From assembly GCF_029227855.1 (NCBI RefSeq), contig NZ_CP074356.1: a stretch of 64,000 nt of DNA, one strand, 5' to 3'. The stretch comes from Escherichia coli (GTDB lineage Bacteria; Pseudomonadota; Gammaproteobacteria; Enterobacterales; Enterobacteriaceae). The notes below the pieces were generated by a model. That model searched no databases. It was not told the DNA's origin and was given only the letters and a program-made list of their open reading frames with translations. Positions 1 through 32,407 of the stretch are shown in pieces. Position numbers and translations under genes: made by a program. Within the stretch, counting starts at the first letter, position 1. Each line of letters begins with the position of its first letter.

Positions 1-132
1 ACGCAGTTCACGCCCTACTGTCAGCAGTTCTTCACGCGTGGAGTTCCCCGCCCAATAACTTTCTTGCGCTTTTTTCAGCTCGCGACGCAGGCCAACGCGA
101 GGGAAACCGAGGGTGTGATTAAGAATTGTCAT
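1..132 (-). CDS. metE: 5' end of cobalamin-independent methionine synthase (partial, continues beyond window start)
   Basis: Reverse-complement of 1..132 translates to [37 protein letters not shown]..., the MetE N-terminus; start codon complement at 130..132; divergent from metR. Confidence 0.85.
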
Positions 133-249
133 TATATGCCCCTTATGGAATTTTTAGTATTTAGCCGTCCAGATGTTTACACATCCATAATTGGCGGTTA
201 CTGTATATTCCTCAAGCGCAAATTATTCATGCCGAAGTGAAGGACTTTC
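133..249. promoter_or_regulatory. metE-metR divergent promoter/operator region
   Basis: AT-rich 117 bp between two divergent start codons; expected location of MetR/MetJ sites from established knowledge; individual sites not resolved by eye. Confidence 0.4.
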
Positions 250-1203
250 ATGATCGAAGTAAAACACCTGAAAACGCTACAAGCGTTGCGGAACTGCGGC
301 TCTCTCGCAGCCGCTGCGGCGACGTTGCATCAGACGCAATCCGCCCTGTCTCACCAGTTTAGCGATCTGGAACAACGCCTTGGCTTCCGGCTATTTGTGC
401 GTAAGAGCCAGCCGCTACGCTTTACACCGCAGGGAGAAATCCTGTTGCAACTGGCAAACCAGGTGCTGCCGCAAATTAGCCAGGCACTGCAAGCCTGCAA
501 TGAACCGCAGCAGACGCGTCTGCGCATTGCCATTGAGTGCCATAGCTGTATTCAGTGGCTGACGCCCGCGTTAGAAAATTTCCATAAGAACTGGCCGCAG
601 GTAGAGATGGATTTTAAATCGGGCGTGACGTTTGACCCGCAGCCCGCGTTGCAACAGGGCGAGCTGGATCTGGTGATGACCTCCGATATCCTGCCGCGCA
701 GTGGCCTGCATTATTCGCCGATGTTCGACTATGAAGTGCGTCTGGTGTTAGCACCTGACCATCCACTGGCGGCGAAAACGCGAATTACACCGGAAGATCT
801 CGCCAGCGAGACGCTGTTGATTTATCCGGTGCAGCGTAGTCGACTGGATGTCTGGCGGCATTTTCTTCAGCCGGCAGGCGTCAGCCCGTCACTGAAAAGC
901 GTCGATAACACCTTATTGTTGATTCAGATGGTTGCCGCGCGGATGGGTATTGCCGCGCTACCGCATTGGGTAGTAGAGAGTTTTGAGCGCCAGGGTCTGG
1001 TGGTGACCAAAACCCTGGGCGAAGGCTTGTGGAGCCGACTGTACGCCGCCGTGCGCGATGGCGAGCAGCGTCAGCCAGTTACGGAAGCGTTTATTCGCTC
1101 AGCGCGCAATCACGCCTGCGATCATCTGCCGTTTGTGAAGAGCGCGGAGCGACCCACTTACGATGCACCCACAGTGAGGCCAGGATCACCAGCGCGCCTG
1201 TAA
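250..1203 (+). CDS. metR: LysR-family transcriptional activator MetR
   Basis: 317-aa ORF with N-terminal HTH ([31 protein letters not shown]); length and sequence match MetR; adjacent and divergent to metE. Confidence 0.93.
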
Positions 1204-1990
1204 TAAACGTTGGCCAGTGCGGCTGTTGGTGCCAGATAGCCAGGTTTACCAGCAGCCCTGCCGGAACGTGCATATTATTCATAATGCCCAGCGTTCCGGC
1301 GTCCACCTGCGTCGCGCCGTAGTTCCACATAAAGTAGCCAATCCCGGAAGCCACCACGCCAAGAAACACCAGAATGCCCCATTGCAGCGTGGTTTGCGGC
1401 ATTTTCTGCGCATTTCCCAGCAAGAACCATGCAATTACCGCCACCAGGAACGCGCCAAGATAGAACCACGCAAAGGCGTTATGCTGCGGCATCGGGCGAG
1501 TTTCCATCAGGCGTTTGTAACCCACCATGCCGATGGCAAAAGTGATATTGGAGAGTTGCACCAGCAACAAGCCAGTCCAGAAATGGTCGGTGACCTGATC
1601 ATAGCGAATAATCCCGGCACCAATCACCGCCAGCAAGGCGCTAAAAGCATAGCCCCAGCGCAGACGGCGCTTACTCATGATGTCATAAATCAGCGTGATG
1701 TAGAGCGGCGTCAGCACGGTGAACAGCAGCAGCTCGGAAACCGTCAGGTAGAGATAAGCGCGGAAACTCAGCATATACATCACGCCGAGCTGCATCGCGC
1801 CCACCAGCATATACAGGCCGACTGTTTTCAGGCTATTGCCACGGGTACGCAGAAACGGCAGAAAAACGAGTGCCGCCAGGCCAACGCGCACCAGCACCGC
1901 AAAATAGCTATCGACGTGCCCCGCAAGGTACTCGCCATAAAAGCTAAAGGAGAAGGCCCACAGAATCGTGGTGATGATAAGTAGCGCCAC
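1091..1990 (-). CDS. yigM: EamA/DMT-family inner membrane transporter (YigM/BioP-like)
   Basis: 299-aa multi-pass hydrophobic ORF; synteny between metR and yigL; 3' end overlaps metR 3' end convergently. Confidence 0.85.
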
Positions 1991-2065
1991 AATGGAAAAC
2001 TCTTTGATTAACGAGTATCCATTGTAGCGAAGTATCAGGTTGACAACTGACCAAATAAAGAACGA

Positions 2066-2866
2066 TTACGATAAATAGAGTTTACGCAGATAATGCGGCA
2101 CCGCGTCTTCGGCGTTAGTACCAATCACTTCCAGCTCGGGATGAAGGTCTTTCAGACGCTGGTGCGCACTGCCCATAATGCAGCCTTTCCCCGCCATCGA
2201 CAGCATTTCGGCGTCGTTCATCCCGTCACCAAACGCAATACAATCCTTCAGGCTGTAGCCCAGTTTCTTCGCCACTGCTTCCAGCGCATGGCCTTTCGAC
2301 ACGCCGCCCGCCATCACTTCCAGACAGGTTAAGGTAGAGAAACTGACGTTGACGCGATCGCCCCAGCGAGCGTTAATCGCCTGCTCCAGCGGCAGCAGTT
2401 GTTCATGGGAATCGCAGGTGAAAAACACTTTGCTGACGCCTTCCGGCTCCAGTAATCCAGGCTCATACAGCGCATATTTGAACACCGCTTCTTTAAAAAA
2501 GCGCATCTCTTCCGGGCGATGGCGATTCATAAACCATTCGTCGTCGCGATAAACGTTAGTAATGATGTCCGGATTGTCGTTGACTACGCCAAACAGATCG
2601 CTGGCAATGTCGCGATCCAGGTTATGAGCAAAAATCAGATTACCATCCAGATCGTGAACGCGCGCACCATTGGAGGTAATCATGTAAGACTTAATCTCCA
2701 GATTATCGCGAATTTGCCCCACATCAACGTGGTGACGACCGGTCGCAAACACAAAGTTGATGCCGCGCGCGGTGAGCAGCTTCAGAGTTTCTTTGGCGTA
2801 AGGGGATAACGTATGGTCGGGAGAAAGTAACGTGCCATCTAAATCAGACGCAACAACCTGGTACAT
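2066..2866 (-). CDS. yigL: HAD-superfamily Cof-type sugar phosphatase
   Basis: ORF track gives 308 aa; internal start MYQVVASDLDGTLL carries the HAD motif I (DxDGT) and yields the expected 266 aa; GDGMND motif near the C-terminus. Confidence 0.85.
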   Translation of the reverse strand: MYQVVASDLDGTLLSPDHTLSPYAKETLKLLTARGINFVFATGRHHVDVGQIRDNLEIKSYMITSNGARVHDLDGNLIFAHNLDRDIASDLFGVVNDNPDIITNVYRDDEWFMNRHRPEEMRFFKEAVFKYALYEPGLLEPEGVSKVFFTCDSHEQLLPLEQAINARWGDRVNVSFSTLTCLEVMAGGVSKGHALEAVAKKLGYSLKDCIAFGDGMNDAEMLSMAGKGCIMGSAHQRLKDLHPELEVIGTNAEDAVPHYLRKLYLS

Positions 2867-4006: not shown

Positions 4007-4627
4007 ATGACCTTAGAATGGTGGTTTGCCTACCTGCTGACATCGATCATTTTAAGCCTGTCGCCAGGCTCTGGTGCAATCAACACTATGACCACCTCGC
4101 TCAACCACGGTTATCGCGGCGCGGTGGCGTCTATTGCTGGGCTTCAAACCGGACTGGCGATTCATATTGTGCTGGTTGGCGTGGGGTTGGGGACGCTATT
4201 TTCCCGCTCAGTGATTGCGTTTGAAGTGTTGAAGTGGGCAGGCGCGGCTTACTTGATTTGGCTGGGAATCCAGCAGTGGCGCGCCGCTGGTGCAATTGAC
4301 CTTAAATCGCTGGCCTCTACTCAATCGCGTCGACATTTGTTCCAGCGCGCAGTTTTTGTGAATCTCACCAATCCCAAAAGTATTGTGTTTCTGGCGGCGC
4401 TATTTCCGCAATTCATCATGCCGCAACAGCCGCAACTGATGCAGTATATCGTGCTCGGCGTCACCACTATTGTGGTCGATATTATTGTGATGATCGGTTA
4501 CGCCACCCTTGCTCAACGGATTGCTCTATGGATTAAAGGACCAAAGCAGATGAAGGCGCTGAATAAGATTTTCGGCTCGTTGTTTATGCTGGTGGGAGCG
4601 CTGTTAGCATCGGCGAGGCATGCGTGA
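4007..4627 (+). CDS. rhtB: LysE/RhtB-family homoserine/homoserine-lactone exporter
   Basis: 206-aa membrane ORF; divergent from pldB and convergent with paralog rhtC. Confidence 0.9.
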
Positions 4628-4635
4628 AAAATAAT

Positions 4636-4665
4636 GTCGGATGCGGCGTAAACGCCTTATCCGAC
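4636..4665. repeat. REP (repetitive extragenic palindrome) unit
   Basis: gtcggatgcggcgtaaacgccttatccgac, an imperfect palindrome of the canonical GCCGGATG...CATCCGGC family, between convergent rhtB and rhtC. Confidence 0.6.
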
Positions 4666-4688
4666 TTACTCTGAAGACGCGTCTGGCA

Positions 4689-5309
4689 TCACCGCGAAAT
4701 AATCAAATGAATGCCAAATCCGGCAAATAACGCCCCGGCAAAACCATCAATCCACTTCGCCAGACGTTGATAACCACGGCGCATTTGCGGCAGGGCAAAC
4801 AGGCTGGCAACGACGGTAAACCACGCCAGCGTTTCGACAATGATCAGCGCAAAAATGCCCCAGCGCGCGGTAGTGCCAACGTTATCACCGACAAACAATG
4901 AGAACACCGAGCCAAAGTAGATAATCGCTTTCGGATTAGCGAGATTGGTCAGTAAACCTTTCAGGAAACTGCGCCCACTTTTCGCCAGCTCGACCTGTGG
5001 CGCAGGTGCAGAAACTGCCTCTTTTTTCAGCGCGCCGCGCAGCATCTGGTAACCCATCCAGCAGAGATACAGGCCACCGCCAACCATAATCAGCGTATGC
5101 AGCCAGGCCATTTTTTCGATAATCAAATGCAGGCCAAGCAACGCAATCCCAGCCCAAACCATTACGCCGCAGGTAATGCCCAGCACGCCCATCATCGCTT
5201 CTTTACGGGAACGACTGACAGCGGTCTGAGAGACAAAAAAGAAATCGGGACCGGGGCTCATAAGCGCCACAATGTGCACCATGGCGACGGTGAGAAATAA
5301 CATCAACAT
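4689..5309 (-). CDS. rhtC: LysE/RhtB-family threonine exporter
   Basis: 206-aa membrane ORF paralogous to rhtB; synteny upstream of recQ. Confidence 0.9.
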   Translation of the reverse strand: MLMLFLTVAMVHIVALMSPGPDFFFVSQTAVSRSRKEAMMGVLGITCGVMVWAGIALLGLHLIIEKMAWLHTLIMVGGGLYLCWMGYQMLRGALKKEAVSAPAPQVELAKSGRSFLKGLLTNLANPKAIIYFGSVFSLFVGDNVGTTARWGIFALIIVETLAWFTVVASLFALPQMRRGYQRLAKWIDGFAGALFAGFGIHLIISR

Positions 5310-10333: not shown

Positions 10334-10720
10334 ATGTTCAAATTATCCATCAGAAATATATTCTACCCATCCAGGCTTGAGCGTTTATCACGCTTTCAGT
10401 TCATAATCTATACATTAACATCATGGTCAATATTAATAACTTTGAATGATATCAACCTGGCTTTGAGTTTTATTCTGGTTATTAATAATACCTATGTAAA
10501 TATCAATATTGGAGCAAAAAGAATAAGAGATACTGGATGTAAGGCAATCTACTTTGTATTGATTTCATTGGGCTTGACACTTTTTTCTATTATCTCTGCA
10601 GCAATTGAAGGGATGAGATGTGAGTCATTAAGCGTCCAACTCAACGTGGCATGGATATTATTCACAACAATTATGTTATCTGCGATTCCCTCGGCTAAAA
10701 TGTCGCTGTCAGCACACTAA
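10334..10720 (+). CDS. small hypothetical inner membrane protein (128 aa), low-GC
   Basis: ORF with about 4 hydrophobic segments, preceded by a very AT-rich 200 bp region; ends 25 bp before the duplicated corA 3' fragment (convergent). Confidence 0.45.
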   Translation: MFKLSIRNIFYPSRLERLSRFQFIIYTLTSWSILITLNDINLALSFILVINNTYVNINIGAKRIRDTGCKAIYFVLISLGLTLFSIISAAIEGMRCESLSVQLNVAWILFTTIMLSAIPSAKMSLSAH

Positions 10721-12455: not shown

Positions 12456-13406
12456 TTACAGCCAGTTCTTGCGCTTAAAGTACAGATACGGTGCCAGGCC
12501 CGCGAGGATCATAAAGATAATCGCGCCTGGGTAGCCGAAACTCCACTTCAGTTCTGGCATAAACTCAAAGTTCATCCCATAGCTGGAAGCAACGAGCGTC
12601 GGCGGCAGGAATACCACGGATACCACCGAGAAGATTTTGATGATGCGGTTCTGCTCGATGTTGATAAAGCCCATCGCCGCCTGCATCAGGAAGTTCACCT
12701 TCTGGAACAGGGATTCGTTATGCGGCAGCAGGGATTCGATATCTCGCAGGATTTCACGCGCCTGCTCCAGTTGCCCACCCGGTAAACGCGCCTTGCGTAC
12801 CAGGAAGTTGAGCGCACGCTGGGTATCCATCAGACACAGGCGAACTTTCCAGCCGATATCTTCCAGTTCCGCCAGCGTGGAGAGCGCCTCATCGTACTCA
12901 TCGCCCTGATGCCCTTCCATAATTACCCGGCTCAACTGCTCCAGATCGCTGTAGATATTTTCAATTTCATCTGCCAGCTGTTCGATTTTGGTTTCGAACA
13001 GATCCAACAGCAGCTCGTAGGCGTTACCGTCCACCATTGACTGGCTACGGGCGCGCATACGATACAGACGGAATGCAGGCAGTTCACGCTCACGCAGAGT
13101 AAACAGACGACCATCACGGATGGTAAATGCCACAGTGGAGTTACCGGCGTGATCTTCCGCATCTTCAAAGAAGAAGAAGGAGTGAATATGCAGGCCGTCA
13201 TCGTCTTCAAAGAAACGTGCCGATGCTTCGATGTCTTCCAGTTCCGGGCGGGTTGCCAGGCTCTGGCCAAGTTCAGATTGTACGCGCAGTCGCTCGTCGT
13301 CGTCCGGTTCGACAAGATCAATCCATACTGCATTTACAAGGGGTTGTGACTCTTCGACTTCCAGCCGGGTCAGTCGGTTATTTTCCAGTTGAAATGCGCT
13401 CAGCAT
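12456..13406 (-). CDS. corA: Mg2+/Co2+ transport protein CorA
   Basis: 316 aa from [12 protein letters not shown]; C-terminal TM helices with the YGMNF signature (GMN motif). Confidence 0.93.
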
Positions 13407-18545: not shown

Positions 18546-19249
18546 ACGCGTTCAATCCAACGCTCCAGAAGCTCCGGCAACATCAGCGCAATTTCATGAA
18601 GTAACTGCGTTCCTTGCCCTTGTTGATAGTGACTGGCATCGCGACTGGTAAACAGCACGACACCCAAATCAGCATCGCTTCCCAGCATCGACATCGCCAC
18701 CGATCCCACCGCTTTCGCTTCCGGTAGCACCACCAGCAGCTCTGGTCCGTTAAGCGGCCCAAGATAGTGCTGTTCCTGCCCCAAACGCTGAATACGCAGC
18801 GGTTCGAAAGACTGACGGCTTAATGCCAGATGAGTGTGGTTCGACGGCGCACCTAAGCGCCAGCGATCCGGAAACAGGCGCAGACTCGCACCTGCCAGGC
18901 CGAGATCGCGCGCCCAGCGGTGAAAGCGCATCAGCATATCGTCGAGACTGCTGGCGGCGGTGAGACTGCGCTGCAGGTAGAGTAGGCGATAAAACAGGCC
19001 TTCGTTGGCGATAGCCTGTTCCATCAACAGCGCCATGTTCTCTTCCAGAACATGAATATGATTACGTGCGCGGGCCATGTGCCACTCGACCAACGAAACG
19101 GTGCCGCGTACCGGATGCGGCACACGTATCGCTTCTACTGCGCGCGCATTACGGATAAAAAACTCAGGATTTTTAATCAGATAATCGACAACCGCCCGGT
19201 CATCAAGCTCCGTGAGTGTTTCCTGCAGTTCTTCCCCTGGTTGCTTCAT
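18542..19249 (-). CDS. yigA: DUF484-family protein YigA
   Basis: 235-aa ORF between dapF and xerC with 4-bp overlaps (operon). Confidence 0.85.
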
Positions 19250-20070
19250 AGATGAATAAATCCGTCGTAGACATGTACCGCCGGGCCAGTCATATATAAC
19301 GGGTGACCCGGACCTTTCCAGGCGATATCAAGACGACCGCCGGGGAGTTCCACGCGTACTTCTTCGGCCAGCAAACCTTGCTGAATCCCTACTGCAACCG
19401 CCGCACACGCGCCGCTGCCGCAGGCCTGGGTTTCTCCTGCCCCACGCTCATAAACGCGTAAACGAATATGCTCGCGCTTAACCACTTGCATAAAACCGAT
19501 ATTGGCTCGCTCCGGAAAACGCTCGTGGCTTTCCAGAACAGGACCAAGCGTTTCTACCGCCGCGGTATCGACATCATCGACCTGAATCACGCAATGCGGA
19601 TTTCCCATCGACACCACGCCGCATAAGATTGTCTGCTCGGCGGCGCGCATAATATAGGTCTTTTCCGCTTTGTTAGCGCGAAACGGCACGGCGGAAGGTT
19701 CGAAGTTGGGTTCGCCCATATTTACGCGGACCAGATCATCATCGGTGACGGTCAGAACCATCCGCCCGTTGGCGGTGCTGACGCGGATATCGCGCTTATT
19801 GGTCAGCCCTTTCAGACGCACAAAACGGGCAAAGCAGCGCGCACCATTGCCGCACTGCGCCACTTCACTGCCATCAGCATTGAAAATGCGATAGTGAAAA
19901 TCCAGTTCAGGATCATACGGCGGCTCAACCACCAGCAGTTGGTCAAACCCTACTCCCAGGTGCCGATCAGCCAGGCGACGAATCAGCTCCGGTGAAAAAA
20001 AGACATTCTGCGTTACCGCGTCGACGACCATAAAATCGTTGCCAAGGCCATGCATTTTCGAGAACTGCAT
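19246..20070 (-). CDS. dapF: diaminopimelate epimerase
   Basis: 274 aa from [19 protein letters not shown] (GNDF motif) and catalytic Cys motif GNGARC. Confidence 0.92.
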
Positions 20071-20106
20071 CATTTACTCCAATCACGCGGGTACAGAAAC
20101 TGACTT

Positions 20107-20310
20107 TTAGTAATTCACCTGGGATGGACCATCGCCAGTGGCGCGATCGTTTTTATCCGGCACCGTGGATTGCGTTTGCGTCTCTACCGGTTTGGTCGGC
20201 GGCGGTGCGTTTTTATCTGCAGGCGGGAAATAGAGCGGACCTTTCAGACCGCAGCCCGTCAGGCTGAAGAGAGTAAGTAATACAGTGAGTGCCTTAAACA
20301 CGTTTTTCAT
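20107..20310 (-). CDS. yifL: small lipoprotein YifL
   Basis: 67-aa ORF with lipobox LTGC after a signal peptide (MKNVFKALTVLLTLFSLTGCG); immediately upstream of dapF. Confidence 0.8.
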   Translation of the reverse strand: MKNVFKALTVLLTLFSLTGCGLKGPLYFPPADKNAPPPTKPVETQTQSTVPDKNDRATGDGPSQVNY

Positions 20311-20772
20311 TATGGATTGCCTGTAAAGTTCATCGCTTTCTGCTTTCTATCATCGCAGGAGAAGACGTAAAAGCAAGCGTTTAGCGACTCTTTATGAAGT
20401 CTGAAAAGTGAGGAAATGCTGCGAGTATAACGCTTACTCGTGGGGATTTATGTTTTGCTGGTAGTTTCGTGATCGGCACCTCGCGCCAGGATGGCTTTAT
20501 GCACTATCGCAATGTAGTTTGTTTGTTGGCTTTTTTAGTTCCGTCAGCGTGAGGATGCTCGCTCGGTAAACCTGATCATAATGTTTACCAGAAACAGGGA
20601 AAGGCGTGGTGTAACTGCGCCCTAATGAAGAGACAAATCTTTCGCTACACTGAGACATCATTATTCCGGTGACGGATGAATCGTGCCGGAACGCAGCCGC
20701 AGAGGTGCAAACTTTGAAGCCCTGACCCCATGCCGCTATACTGCCGCCATCACTTAAAAACAGGATACAACA

Positions 20773-21093
20773 ATGAACGACAGTGAATTTCATCGCCTGG
20801 CTGATCAACTCTGGCTGACCATTGAAGAACGCCTGGACGACTGGGATGGCGACAGCGATATCGACTGCGAAATCAACGGCGGCGTACTGACCATTACCTT
20901 TGAAAACGGCAGCAAAATCATTATTAACCGCCAGGAGCCGCTGCACCAGGTGTGGCTGGCAACCAAACAGGGCGGCTACCATTTTGACCTAAAAGGCGAT
21001 GAATGGATTTGCGATCGCAGCGGCGAAACCTTCTGGGATTTGCTGGAACAGGCGGCGACACAGCAAGCGGGTGAAACAGTCAGTTTCCGCTAA
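20773..21093 (+). CDS. cyaY: frataxin homolog CyaY (iron-sulfur cluster assembly)
   Basis: 106-aa acidic [36 protein letters not shown]...; matches CyaY. Confidence 0.9.
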
Positions 21094-21132
21094 GATTGCA
21101 TGCCGGATAAGCCTCGCTTTCCGGCACGTTCA

Positions 21133-23679
21133 TCACGAAAAATATTGCTGTAATAGCGGCGTATCGTGATCCTGATTGGCAGGCGGCATGTTACCGATAG
21201 ATTTTGTGCGGAACGGAATCACCTGTTCACGACCATCAACCTTCACAATCTGATAGAACTGCGGCAGGTTGAAGTTGATGAAGCTTGAGCCGTAGGTGAA
21301 GCGGTCGTGCGATGACGAGTAGAAGCGACTGACGTCACGCACCAGTTCCTCTTTGCTGCCTTCGCAGTGGTGATACACCTCAACCCGGTTGCTTTCGTCG
21401 AGAATGTAGATATTAAAGCCATTCTCGTCTTGCGTTTCTTCGAAGAAGAACTGGATGATCCCTTCACTAGCAAAGCCGTCCACCACCGCCGGTAATTTGA
21501 CGTGATTGGTTTCAACCTGCACTGACAAGCCGTGCAGTTTGTTATGCGAAATAGCGCCATAAAACTCGATGGCGTTTTCCAGTTTTTGTACCGATACATT
21601 CAGGCGTTCGAAGAACAACCCCCAGGTTTGACCAGAAACGCGCAGCGCCTTGAAACGCCCGGTTTCCTGGCGGGTGCTGGAAAGGCGCAGTTCAATACAC
21701 TCAGAAACCAGTTGCTGCACGCGAGTACGGATTAACCCGCGCAGATGCTGGCTATAACAGAAGACTTCCACGCTATCTGGCGGTGCGGCGTCCTGATGCA
21801 TTTTGCCGAGAATAGTTTTCAGGGCTTCGATCATCGATTGCTCGCCGTTGAAGTGCAGCGTACGCACTTCGTTCCACGAGTTGCGGTACAGCAGGTCAAC
21901 GCTACCTACCAGGCAATTTTGATTCTCGCCAAAGCTGAAGACATCCAGCTTACGGAAATCAAAATGCACCACCTGATTGCGGAACGCCGCTGTCGGGTCA
22001 TATTCCAGGTTAACGATAATCGCCAGATGGCGGATCTCACACGGGCTGTAGAGCGCCTTCGGTGTCGGTGCAGGTAAGCGCAGCGGGAAATGGTGCGACA
22101 CGTCGGCGACCATCTCCTGCAACTTAGGCAAATCGACAATGCCGTTACCTTTAATATACAAACGGGTGCGCGAGGTCAGCAGGCCGTTAAACCATGCCCA
22201 CGCCACCAGTTTATTCAGGTAACGGTTATATTCCAGCGGCTGATGGCTGATGATCGACTCAATATTTGGCGCGCGGTTATACAGATACCAACCTGAACGG
22301 TTAGCACGGCCCGGCGGCACATAAATAAAGGTCAGATTCGGTTCCGAGAGATCGGGTGAAATCTGCGGGTTTACCAGCGTCACTTTACCTGGTAATGCTT
22401 CAAACGCGGCATACAGCTTACGCGTCAGCACGCCGATATCCTGCGGACTGGCGGAGACGCTAAGGTTATTGCGACGCGCAAAGCGGATCAGATTACGGTA
22501 GCTCTGCATCATCGCGTCGAGCAACTCGTTGTGCGCCTCACGCACCTGATCAATCTTCCAGTTAGCGCGGTTATCGAGCATTGCCAGACGAGCTTCGTCC
22601 CAACCCCACTCGCTCACTAACTGGCTCAACACTGCGCGACGCCAGCCTACGCAGGCGCGTTCACGGCTGAGCTTTTCGCACACTTTTAAATAGAAGCAGC
22701 GACGTACTAAATCCAGACGGGTAAAATCTTCAATCGCCGTCAGGTATTCAGTAACACGCTCCAGCATCATGCAGTATGGATCGAGACCAAACGATACAAT
22801 CTCGCCGTCGTGCAAACGCTGTTTGATATCTTTCGCCAGCAGACGTGGGTTCGGGTATTCCCAGGAATAGGCTTCCAGCAGCAGTGTTTTCAGTACCGCT
22901 TTGTATGGGGAATCGATACTCTTGTAGAGCTGCCAAAGGCTGGCACCAAAGTACTCTTCAGCAGAAAGCGAGCTTAAGCCACCGAGATCCAGCCATTCAT
23001 TTGGCGTCAGCACGCCCTGCGCGTAAAGCGTCATCACATAGTCGTCGTAATGCTCTTCTTCGTCGCACGGCACCATATTCCACAGAATACGCTTACCGGC
23101 GAGACGCACGGCGGTACGATAAAATTCGTCAAGCAGCAGTATATGCTGGGTGGAGCCACAATCTTCGCCCCCCAGGCTGCCGCTTTCATTATGACGGAAG
23201 CGGTTTTCATCAATCAGGAAGAAGCTGACTTCCACACCCAGCGAGGCGGCCCAGCTTTCCAGCAGACTACATTTACGTTGTAGTAACTGGCGCTCTTCGC
23301 TATCGAGCCAGGATTGATGACAGACCCAGATATCCAGGTCAGAGGAACAACTTTGCCCTACGGACGAGGTGCTGCCCATGGTGTATACACCAGTAATTGG
23401 AAGCTCACCTTTCGGTGGGTCCTGTACTGACATTCCACGATACAGTTCAAGCTCGTTCAGGTAGTGGCGTTGAGTTTCATCAGGCGTGTAAAGGCAAATG
23501 CCTTTGGGAACGTTACCATCAAGGTAACCCGGCATTAGCGGATGGTGATAGTGCAACAATGTCGGCAGTAGACTGTAGACCTGTTGGAATGCAGGCCCCA
23601 TAGCAGCAAGCGCGCGATCCACACGCAATTGATTTATGGCATCCAGTCTCTGTTTCAGAGTCTCAATATAGAGGTACAA
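21133..23679 (-). CDS. cyaA: class I adenylate cyclase
   Basis: 848-aa [21 protein letters not shown]...; the initiation codon read from the sequence is TTG (complement of 23677..23679). Confidence 0.93.
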
Positions 23680-30919: not shown

Positions 30920-31021
30920 TTAGCGCCGTTGCGGGGGTGGATAATACGGACTTCCCACCCCTCTGTCTAGTCCCTTTTTAAATAAATTGCGCGTTTGGTT
31001 ACGGTTTGTGCGTTTTGCTGC

Positions 31022-32407
31022 TTATTCCTCCAGTTTATGCGCTTTCCCGTGGCGATTAAGGCCAAAAACTTTATAAATCGCCGTCACCGCCAGCATAAAG
31101 ATGATGCCAACAAACAGCGACATACGCGTATCTTCATTAAAGTACATGCCGATCAAAACGCAAATCAGGAATGCCATTGTTACGTAGTTGGCCCACGGGA
31201 ACAGGATTGAGCGGAACGGATGGCTGGCAATCGCCGCTTTATGTGCACGCCGAAAACGCAGCTGGCTTATCAATATCACAAACCATGGCACCATCCCCGG
31301 AAGCACGCTGGCACTGTAGACGTAGACAAACACACGCTGCGGATTGGGAATGATGTAGTTCAGGCATGAGCCAATTAGCAGAATAGCAATAGATACTGCC
31401 ACACCCGCAACTGGTACGCCGTGACGGGAAACTTTCGCCATCGCCGCCGGTAACTGACGGTTTTTCGCCAGTGCGTAGAGCATACGTCCGCAACTGTACA
31501 TGCCGCTGTTACAGCCAGAGAGCGCAGCCGTCAGCACCACAAAGTTGATAATGCCCGCCGCTGCGGTAATACCGATTTTGGCAAAAGTCAGTACGAACGG
31601 GCTGCCGTTGCTGCCAATTTCATTCCACGGGAAGATGGTGACGATAACGAAAATCGCGCCTACGTAGAAAATCAGGATCCGCCACAGCACTTTGCCTACG
31701 GCACTGCGCAGCGTCACCTGCGGATTCTTCGCTTCACCGGCAGTAATGCCAATCAGCTCCACGCCCTGGTAGGACGCCACCACAATACACAGCGCGGTCA
31801 GGAACCCTTTCCAGCCACCCGCAAAGAAACCGCCATGCTCTGTGAGATTGCTAAAACCAATCGACTGCCCGCCATTGCCAAAGCCAAAGAAAATCACGCC
31901 CAGGCCAATGACAATCATCACGATAATCGTGGTGACTTTGATCATCGCGAACCAGAACTCGATTTCGCCGTACAACCGCACCGCCGCCAGATTCGCCAAC
32001 GCCACCAGCGCCACTGCGATCAATGCGGGTATCCACTGCGCCATCTCCGGGAACCAGAACTGGACATAAACGCCAATGGCGGTGATTTCTGAGATCCCCA
32101 CGGCCATCCACATAAACCAGTAAGACCAGGCGGTGAGATAACCAAAGAACGGGCTCATATAACGATGCGCATAAACGGCGAACGAACCGGTAACCGGTTC
32201 GAGGAACAACATTTCGCCCATTGAACGCATGATGAAAAAGACGAATAGCCCGGCGATGATATAGGCCAACAATACGGATGGCCCGGCCCATTTCAAGGTA
32301 CTGGCGGCCCCCATAAACAGGCCGACGCCAATGGTGCCCCCCAGGGCGATGAGTTCGATATGTCGAGCTTCCAGCCCACGCTGTAGCTCTGGTTTGTTAT
32401 CTGCCAT
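31022..32407 (-). CDS. yifK: APC-family amino acid permease YifK
   Basis: 461-aa 12-TM ORF ([33 protein letters not shown]...); synteny next to the argX tRNA operon. Confidence 0.9.

Follow-up and report, generated by a model that had tools for sequence, protein, structure and literature searches.

Long convergent overlaps between bacterial genes are rare and often artefactual (Palleja et al. 2008, PMC2478687). Palleja, Harrington and Bork (2008, PMC2478687) listed 54 possibly real cases, most of which are conserved only among very close species, and the metR/bioP (yigM) pair of Escherichia coli is not named in that paper. Like the conserved convergent overlaps described there and by Rogozin et al. 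(2002), metR/bioP joins two well-characterised genes over more than 60 bp, and like the convergent cases of Palleja et al. its origin is best explained by extension of the 3′ end, with no start-codon annotation problems. Unlike most of those cases, its geometry is exact over at least three Enterobacterales families. Another described system is holD-rimI, a co-directional overlap of 32–56 bp whose length differs by genus (Palleja et al. 2008). Both pairs have a coding overlap of tens of bases shared by Escherichia, Salmonella and Yersinia, but metR/bioP is convergent, 113 bp long, and nearly fixed in length.

Excludons and overlapping 3′ UTRs of Listeria and S. aureus are also comparable. In these systems (reviewed in PMC7154746; ExcludonFinder, PMC12288877), convergent neighbours have necessarily overlapping transcripts, as metR and yigM do, and such transcripts can interfere with each other's transcription and be cut by RNase III. 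The definition of an excludon rests on documented long overlapping transcripts and reciprocal expression, whereas the metR/yigM overlap is known from coding sequence.

The overlap itself was already noted by Cote et al. (2016; mBio, PMC5120140). In their work the Keio metR deletion resembled a yigM deletion in biotin uptake, was synthetically lethal with bioA, and was sensitive in LB to the BioA inhibitor MAC13772, and they ascribed the phenotype to disruption of yigM. The overlap is thus known from that work and from standard annotation, and it is real and ordinary. Cote et al. dealt with the same locus without an analysis of conservation, selection pattern or tails; what is new here is the order-level conservation, the switch in constraint, the reading of the two protein ends as passenger tails, and the natural truncation alleles.

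All coordinates below are positions in the window, which is the whole 64,000-nt stretch of E. coli contig NZ_CP074356.1 that was analysed. The genes run in the order metE (minus strand, ending at 132), metR (plus), bioP/yigM (minus), yigL and pldB. MetR is a LysR-type activator of metE and metH. YigM is a biotin transporter (Cote et al. 2016, PMC5120140; Finkenwirth et al. 2013). The features at issue are the following.

250–1203, plus strand: metR CDS, a 317-aa ORF in the RefSeq annotation with NCBIfam and Pfam matches.
1091–1990, minus strand: bioP (yigM) CDS, a 299-aa ORF for a 10-helix EamA/DMT biotin transporter, in RefSeq and matched by Pfam EamA.
1091–1203, both strands: the 113-bp tail-to-tail CDS overlap, which holds MetR aa 281–317 plus stop and YigM aa 263–299 plus stop.
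1201–1206, plus strand: the metR stop TAA and, directly after it, another TAA in frame, as read in the sequence.
1091–1093, minus strand: the yigM stop TAA, antisense to the MetR F281/I282 codons (TTT ATT).

Both ORFs are intact, and each has an unambiguous stop inside the CDS of its partner. The NCBIfam MetR equivalog NF011950 matches the metR product over residues 1–317 of 317, Pfam places HTH_1 at 5–63 and LysR_substrate at 86–288, and TIGR00950 matches YigM residues 11–273. RefSeq has the same metR and bioP CDSs in another strain that is 100% identical over window positions 1–2400, and in K-12 MG1655 bioP lies at 4011076–4011975 and metR at 4011863–4012816, again with an overlap of 113 bp. 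Of 5,426 complete E. coli genomes, 5,423 have the region. Since the sequence recurs in those 5,423 and in over 80 further species, the overlap does not stem from a frameshift or a sequencing error in a single record. The coordinates of the convergent overlap, as given in a first-pass annotation of this DNA, are therefore correct on the evidence of the ORFs, the sequence, and RefSeq both here and in K-12. The same annotation called long convergent overlaps unusual, and this agrees with Palleja et al. and with the five further convergent pairs that the window holds in its first 50 kb, all of which are separated by gaps of 39–107 bp.

4627–4689: convergent pair with a gap of 61 bp.
10647–10690: convergent pair with a gap of 42 bp.
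13006–13051: convergent pair with a gap of 44 bp.
23102–23142: convergent pair with a gap of 39 bp.
30983–31091: convergent pair with a gap of 107 bp.

Two other observations concern the gene content of the window. A 255-aa ORF at 1217–1984 on the plus strand is antisense to nearly all of yigM and is presumably a shadow ORF. Between lptM and cyaY, at 19024–22734, there is a gene for a DUF3304 protein together with two genes for hypothetical proteins; these three genes are not expected at this place from the K-12 gene order, and the trio is probably an accessory island.

Protein searches found the 317-aa MetR and the 299-aa YigM again and again in many genera. One genome per species was scanned, which gave 80 Enterobacteriaceae metR/yigM loci, and the variation profiles used below come from 81 stacked species. 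In 76 of the 80 species both stops and the yigM start each lie at the same distance from the metR start, with an overlap of 113 bp and without a single indel across the 1,741 bp that separate the two start codons. The four exceptions overlap by 98 bp (MetR stop six codons earlier), 116 bp (two loci, MetR stop one codon later) and 68 bp (premature YigM stop). The overlap is kept in orthologous pairs of other genera and families, at least three Enterobacterales families in all, and it is again 113 bp in Yersinia. MetR ranges from 311 to 318 aa across Enterobacterales with YigM at 299 aa, and among the 81 species the metR stop codon is TAA in 49 and TGA in 30. Past yigM the gene content of Yersinia, Dickeya and Rahnella differs, so that the locked block comprises no more than metE-metR-yigM.

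These comparisons bear on the suggestion in the first-pass annotation that one of the two C-termini might be mis-called. The stops are unambiguous, and their positions are free of indels in the 76 species and in Yersinia. A comparison of orthologs for an earlier end that abolishes the overlap gave the opposite result, because the shorter MetR of Dickeya (312 aa) and of Rahnella (311 aa) still overlaps yigM, by 98 and 95 bp, respectively.

We measured constraint along the overlap as nucleotide entropy per codon position in the 81 species. The overlap divides into three segments.

Segment A, 1094–1137: the structured end of MetR (helix 276–292, strand 296–298) is constrained, and the YigM tail (aa 285–299) is a passenger.
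Segment B, 1138–1153: a 16-nt junction (MetR K297–P302, YigM V280–S285) with little variation at all three codon positions.
Segment C, 1154–1200: the end of YigM TM10 (aa 264–279) is constrained, and the MetR tail (aa 303–317) is a passenger.

The substitution pattern flips at about nt 1155. In segment A, entropy at metR codon positions 1/2/3 is 0.10/0.02/0.73, compared with 0.19/0.08/0.94 in the rest of metR, and read as yigM codons the same nucleotides vary most at second positions (0.73) and least at wobble sites (0.02). Because only metR wobble sites vary over 1094–1137, it is the last helix of MetR that is constrained, with the YigM tail as its passenger. In segment C, entropy at yigM positions 1/2/3 is 0.32/0.24/0.97, compared with 0.33/0.15/1.05 in the rest of yigM, and the variable sites are MetR second codon positions. 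Only yigM wobble sites vary over 1154–1200, so here TM10 of YigM is constrained and the MetR tail is the passenger. Entropy in segment B is 0.18/0.31/0.30, and MetR A299, R301 and P302 have no or almost no synonymous diversity. Amino-acid entropy is 0.13 for MetR 281–302, 1.24 for MetR 303–317, and 0.19 for the rest of MetR.

Where yigM lies opposite the MetR tail, its synonymous diversity is 0.47 against a gene average of 0.46, from which it follows that the MetR tail imposes no constraint. Synonymous diversity in metR opposite the YigM tail is somewhat reduced (0.28 vs 0.43 and 0.20 vs 0.32, p ~0.02 each), and most of the drop falls on junction codons 299–302 and on F281/I282. Coding-type purifying selection in both frames was looked for across the overlap and not found; each half has one constrained frame, and the 16-nt junction and the yigM stop are the only places where both are constrained.

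The yigM stop is TAA in all 81 aligned species, and YigM E299 is invariant. The MetR codons F281 (TTT) and I282 (ATT), at window positions 1090–1095, are the antisense of YigM E299 and the TAA stop, and each is a single codon in 81 of 81 species, a fixation matched by only 1 of 64 comparable metR codons elsewhere. Because the synonymous alternatives for F281 and I282 are never used, selection appears to hold the yigM stop in place. Passive read-on does not account for this fixation, which, like the lowered synonymous diversity of metR opposite the YigM tail, counts against the structural reading set out below, and to judge from the aligned codons, the YigM end appears not to be wholly free.

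The structured parts of the two proteins end close to the point at which the constraint switches. The structure of the MetR regulatory domain from N. meningitidis (PDB 4ab5) aligns up to residue 296. An AlphaFold2 model of MetR (50-sequence alignment, mean pLDDT 90.7) puts the last helix at 276–292 and a strand at 296–298, and the block-mean pLDDT is 94 for residues 291–300, 50 for 301–310, and 45 for 311–317. For YigM, Pfam EamA ends at 275 and TIGR00950 at 273, and an AlphaFold2 model places TM10 at 259–279 and gives residues 283–299 a pLDDT below 50; this model comes from a shallow alignment of 24 sequences and has a mean pLDDT of 75.7. MetR 301–317 and YigM 283–299 are thus predicted to be disordered. 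In DNA positions, the folded core of MetR ends at about nt 1149 and that of YigM at about nt 1154, so that the cores abut, and several methods (Pfam, TIGR00950, 4ab5 and AlphaFold2) agree on the switch point. Stops in the antisense phase of the long ORFs in the window occur at 0.044 per codon, and at this rate an open antisense run reaches at least 15 codons with P = 0.51 and at least 20 codons with P = 0.41. Given this stop rate, the length of the overlap is what chance would produce once the two cores abut.

Outgroups show how far beyond the folded core a MetR protein usually runs. Among 42 distant MetR-like representatives, which are 33–50% identical and some of which may be paralogs, the protein ends a median of 3.5 residues (range 0–17) past the V296 column, and that of E. 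coli ends 21 past it. The outgroup library was clustered at 50% identity, which merged closer MetR relatives into few clusters. The nearest informative outgroup, Buchnera, is without yigM. In Buchnera aphidicola of Aphis (locus L086, 3001–4776) the order is metE-metR-yigL, MetR is 311 aa long, and a 30-bp gap separates metR from the convergent yigL-like gene; this locus shows what the metR neighbourhood looks like after yigM has been deleted. A second locus, with a 51% identical MetR, is also without yigM.

As a test of 3′ extension, neither protein is markedly longer than its orthologs within Enterobacterales, and the comparison with distant MetR-like proteins (a median tail of 3.5 aa against 21), together with the end of TIGR00950 at 273, indicates that the extension is real and old and is no error. 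From the MetR outgroups and the family models we infer, as the simplest history, that an early Enterobacterales ancestor would have lost the spacer and the original stops. The idea of a mis-called C-terminus therefore fails as a claim of annotation error and survives in spirit, since both proteins end in a passenger tail of 15–21 residues that is disordered and free of constraint. If only selected sequence is counted, almost nothing of the overlap is left, because the tails are unconstrained, distant MetR proteins are shorter, and the YigM family model ends at residue 273.

Natural alleles with altered tails occur in several lineages. MetR tails are frameshifted after about residue 297 in proteins P0006 and P0090, and YigM alleles of 284–285 aa are found in Kluyvera, Citrobacter and Salmonella. 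In E. coli, a W279amber allele of yigM that occurs on many contigs (TGG to TAG, window positions 1154–1156) gives a 278-aa BioP and cuts the overlap down to 50 bp; the same change is P302 CCC to CCT in metR, where it is synonymous. The allele was seen in loci L088 and L089, at 2335–2337 in each, and it represents a circulating lineage and not a one-off error, because the protein is present in 119 blocks of a public collection. Biotin prototrophs may tolerate loss of YigM; the truncated YigM alleles are known as sequences.

We consider it probable that the overlap is a genuine and ancient tail-to-tail overlap of two functional genes, structural and not regulatory in nature, in which each protein carries a disordered passenger tail encoded over the antisense of its partner. 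The codons for the final folded element of MetR would meet those for the final transmembrane helix of YigM nearly end to end, with no intergenic spacer, and on each strand the ribosome would continue across sequence antisense to the partner's final folded element and halt at the first chance stop. The outcome would be a disordered tail of about 17–21 residues on MetR and about 16–20 on YigM, whose sequences would be set by the coding constraints of the partner gene and not by selection on the tails. As the essential 3′ end of each gene sits inside the ORF of the other, the pair is locked; indels are not tolerated, and deletion of one gene damages the other. The transcripts probably end by Rho-dependent termination after ribosome release, as an arrangement of this kind would leave no space for an intrinsic terminator.

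Scans of 800–1500 and of 1–2400 gave no intrinsic terminator near 1091–1203 on either strand. A bidirectional intrinsic terminator was considered and rejected because there is no GC-rich hairpin with flanking A and T runs at the 3′ ends. Downstream of each stop both strands are C-rich relative to G, as RNA that is antisense to a coding strand typically is. A Rho termination region has been mapped nearby.

About 1362 (MG1655 4011704, plus), minus strand, yigM sense: Rho termination region from Adams et al. (2021, eLife, Supplementary file 2), called from 800-nt windows and hence approximate, with the position converted from MG1655.

Reads upstream and downstream of this region were 98 and 21 in untreated cells and 300 and 326 with bicyclomycin, and the Rho score was 5.07 with p = 1.3e-12 (Adams et al. 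2021). The shift in reads with bicyclomycin indicates that Rho limits yigM-sense transcription into the antisense of metR.

Since the CDSs overlap, each mRNA holds at least 113 nt complementary to the other, and this obligatory complementarity is the starting point for a regulatory reading of the locus, in which complementary 3′ ends or colliding RNA polymerases make the expression of metR and yigM mutually antagonistic, as in an excludon. The conservation of the arrangement across three families would fit such a device, the lack of an intrinsic terminator lets the transcripts run further, and the fixed yigM stop could define a Rho loading point; that biotin synthesis uses SAM, as is generally known, also speaks for it. 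We nevertheless regard a regulatory device as unlikely. Protein-coding constraint explains nearly all of the conservation, and the yigM synonymous sites within the overlap vary as they do elsewhere, which argues against an added constraint at the RNA level. A 141-nt stretch across the overlap has no excess of RNA structure compared with shuffled sequences (z −0.36 on the plus strand and +1.08 on the minus strand), and an Rfam search of 800–1500 at E ≤ 1 gave no match. Rho also cuts yigM-sense read-through about five-fold. The Term-seq tables of Adams et al. (2021) assign no 3′ end to metR or yigM, and in the supplements of that study yigM is named once, for the Rho region, and metR never. Neither gene is named in the supplements of SMRT-Cappable-seq or in that of a p19 dsRNA-capture study, where absence from one data set is weak evidence. 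Antisense interference, which the first-pass annotation also raised, is possible in principle and is not needed to explain the conservation.

RNA structure was also seen beyond the overlap. On the minus strand, downstream of the yigM stop, the 146-nt RNA from positions 960–1105 is more structured than shuffled sequences (z −3.3). An inverted repeat at 991–1020 (CAGGGTCTGGTGGTGACCAAAACCCTG) lies within metR and, when the minus strand is read, 70–100 nt past the yigM stop, and its hairpin is stable in nearly all 81 species (mean −17.6 kcal/mol, weakest −2.1). Most of its paired columns are coding positions that do not vary, which leaves structural selection on the hairpin undemonstrable, and the variable columns in the 81 species favour neither strand.

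The regulatory reading can be given a physiological form. SAM is consumed in biotin synthesis (BioB, BioC and BioA), and for this reason it is plausible that methionine and SAM status could tune the import of biotin. Transcription of metR, under control of MetJ/SAM and homocysteine, would enter yigM, and the reverse would also occur, an excludon-like coupling in which the invariant yigM stop would fix the point of ribosome release and Rho loading. We give this coupling little credence; if true, it would link methionine and SAM status to biotin uptake.

We think it quite improbable that the overlap reflects adaptive dual coding, in which selection would act on both frames and keep each C-terminal tail as a functional peptide. 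The strikingly constant length of both ORFs is in its favour, as are the conservation of the 16-nt junction at every codon position and the invariance of YigM E299 and the stop. Outside the junction, however, the tails vary at their own second positions and are most conserved at their own wobble sites, the reverse of what a coding frame under selection shows, and the MetR tail (303–317) has an amino-acid entropy of 1.24 against 0.19 in the rest of MetR. Both tails are predicted to be disordered, and natural alleles in several lineages do without the tails or have replaced them.

An annotation or sequencing artefact with one mis-called C-terminus has next to no chance of being correct, although Palleja et al. 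(2008, PMC2478687) put 124 of 178 long convergent overlaps down to 3′-end extension artefacts and distant MetR-like proteins have a shorter C-terminus, because a stop codon does not depend on gene calling, 5,423 complete E. coli genomes and over 80 further species share the frames and stops without indels, and deletion of metR abolishes yigM function, as predicted if the C-terminus of YigM is encoded inside metR.

The structural overlap has practical consequences for work on either gene. It spans the last helix of MetR and TM10 of YigM, and the Keio yigM deletion is predicted to clip the last helix of MetR if the standard Keio design applies. An in-frame yigM deletion in EHEC grows in M9; its design is not given, and we therefore set it aside as having no bearing on MetR. 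A substitution can be silent in one gene and yet put a stop codon into its partner, as with yigM W279amber and metR P302 CCC to CCT. A deletion or insertion in metR or yigM also harms the partner, and genetic screens and fitness data for the two genes need to be read accordingly. The locus illustrates cleanly that a long convergent overlap can arise and persist without adaptation.
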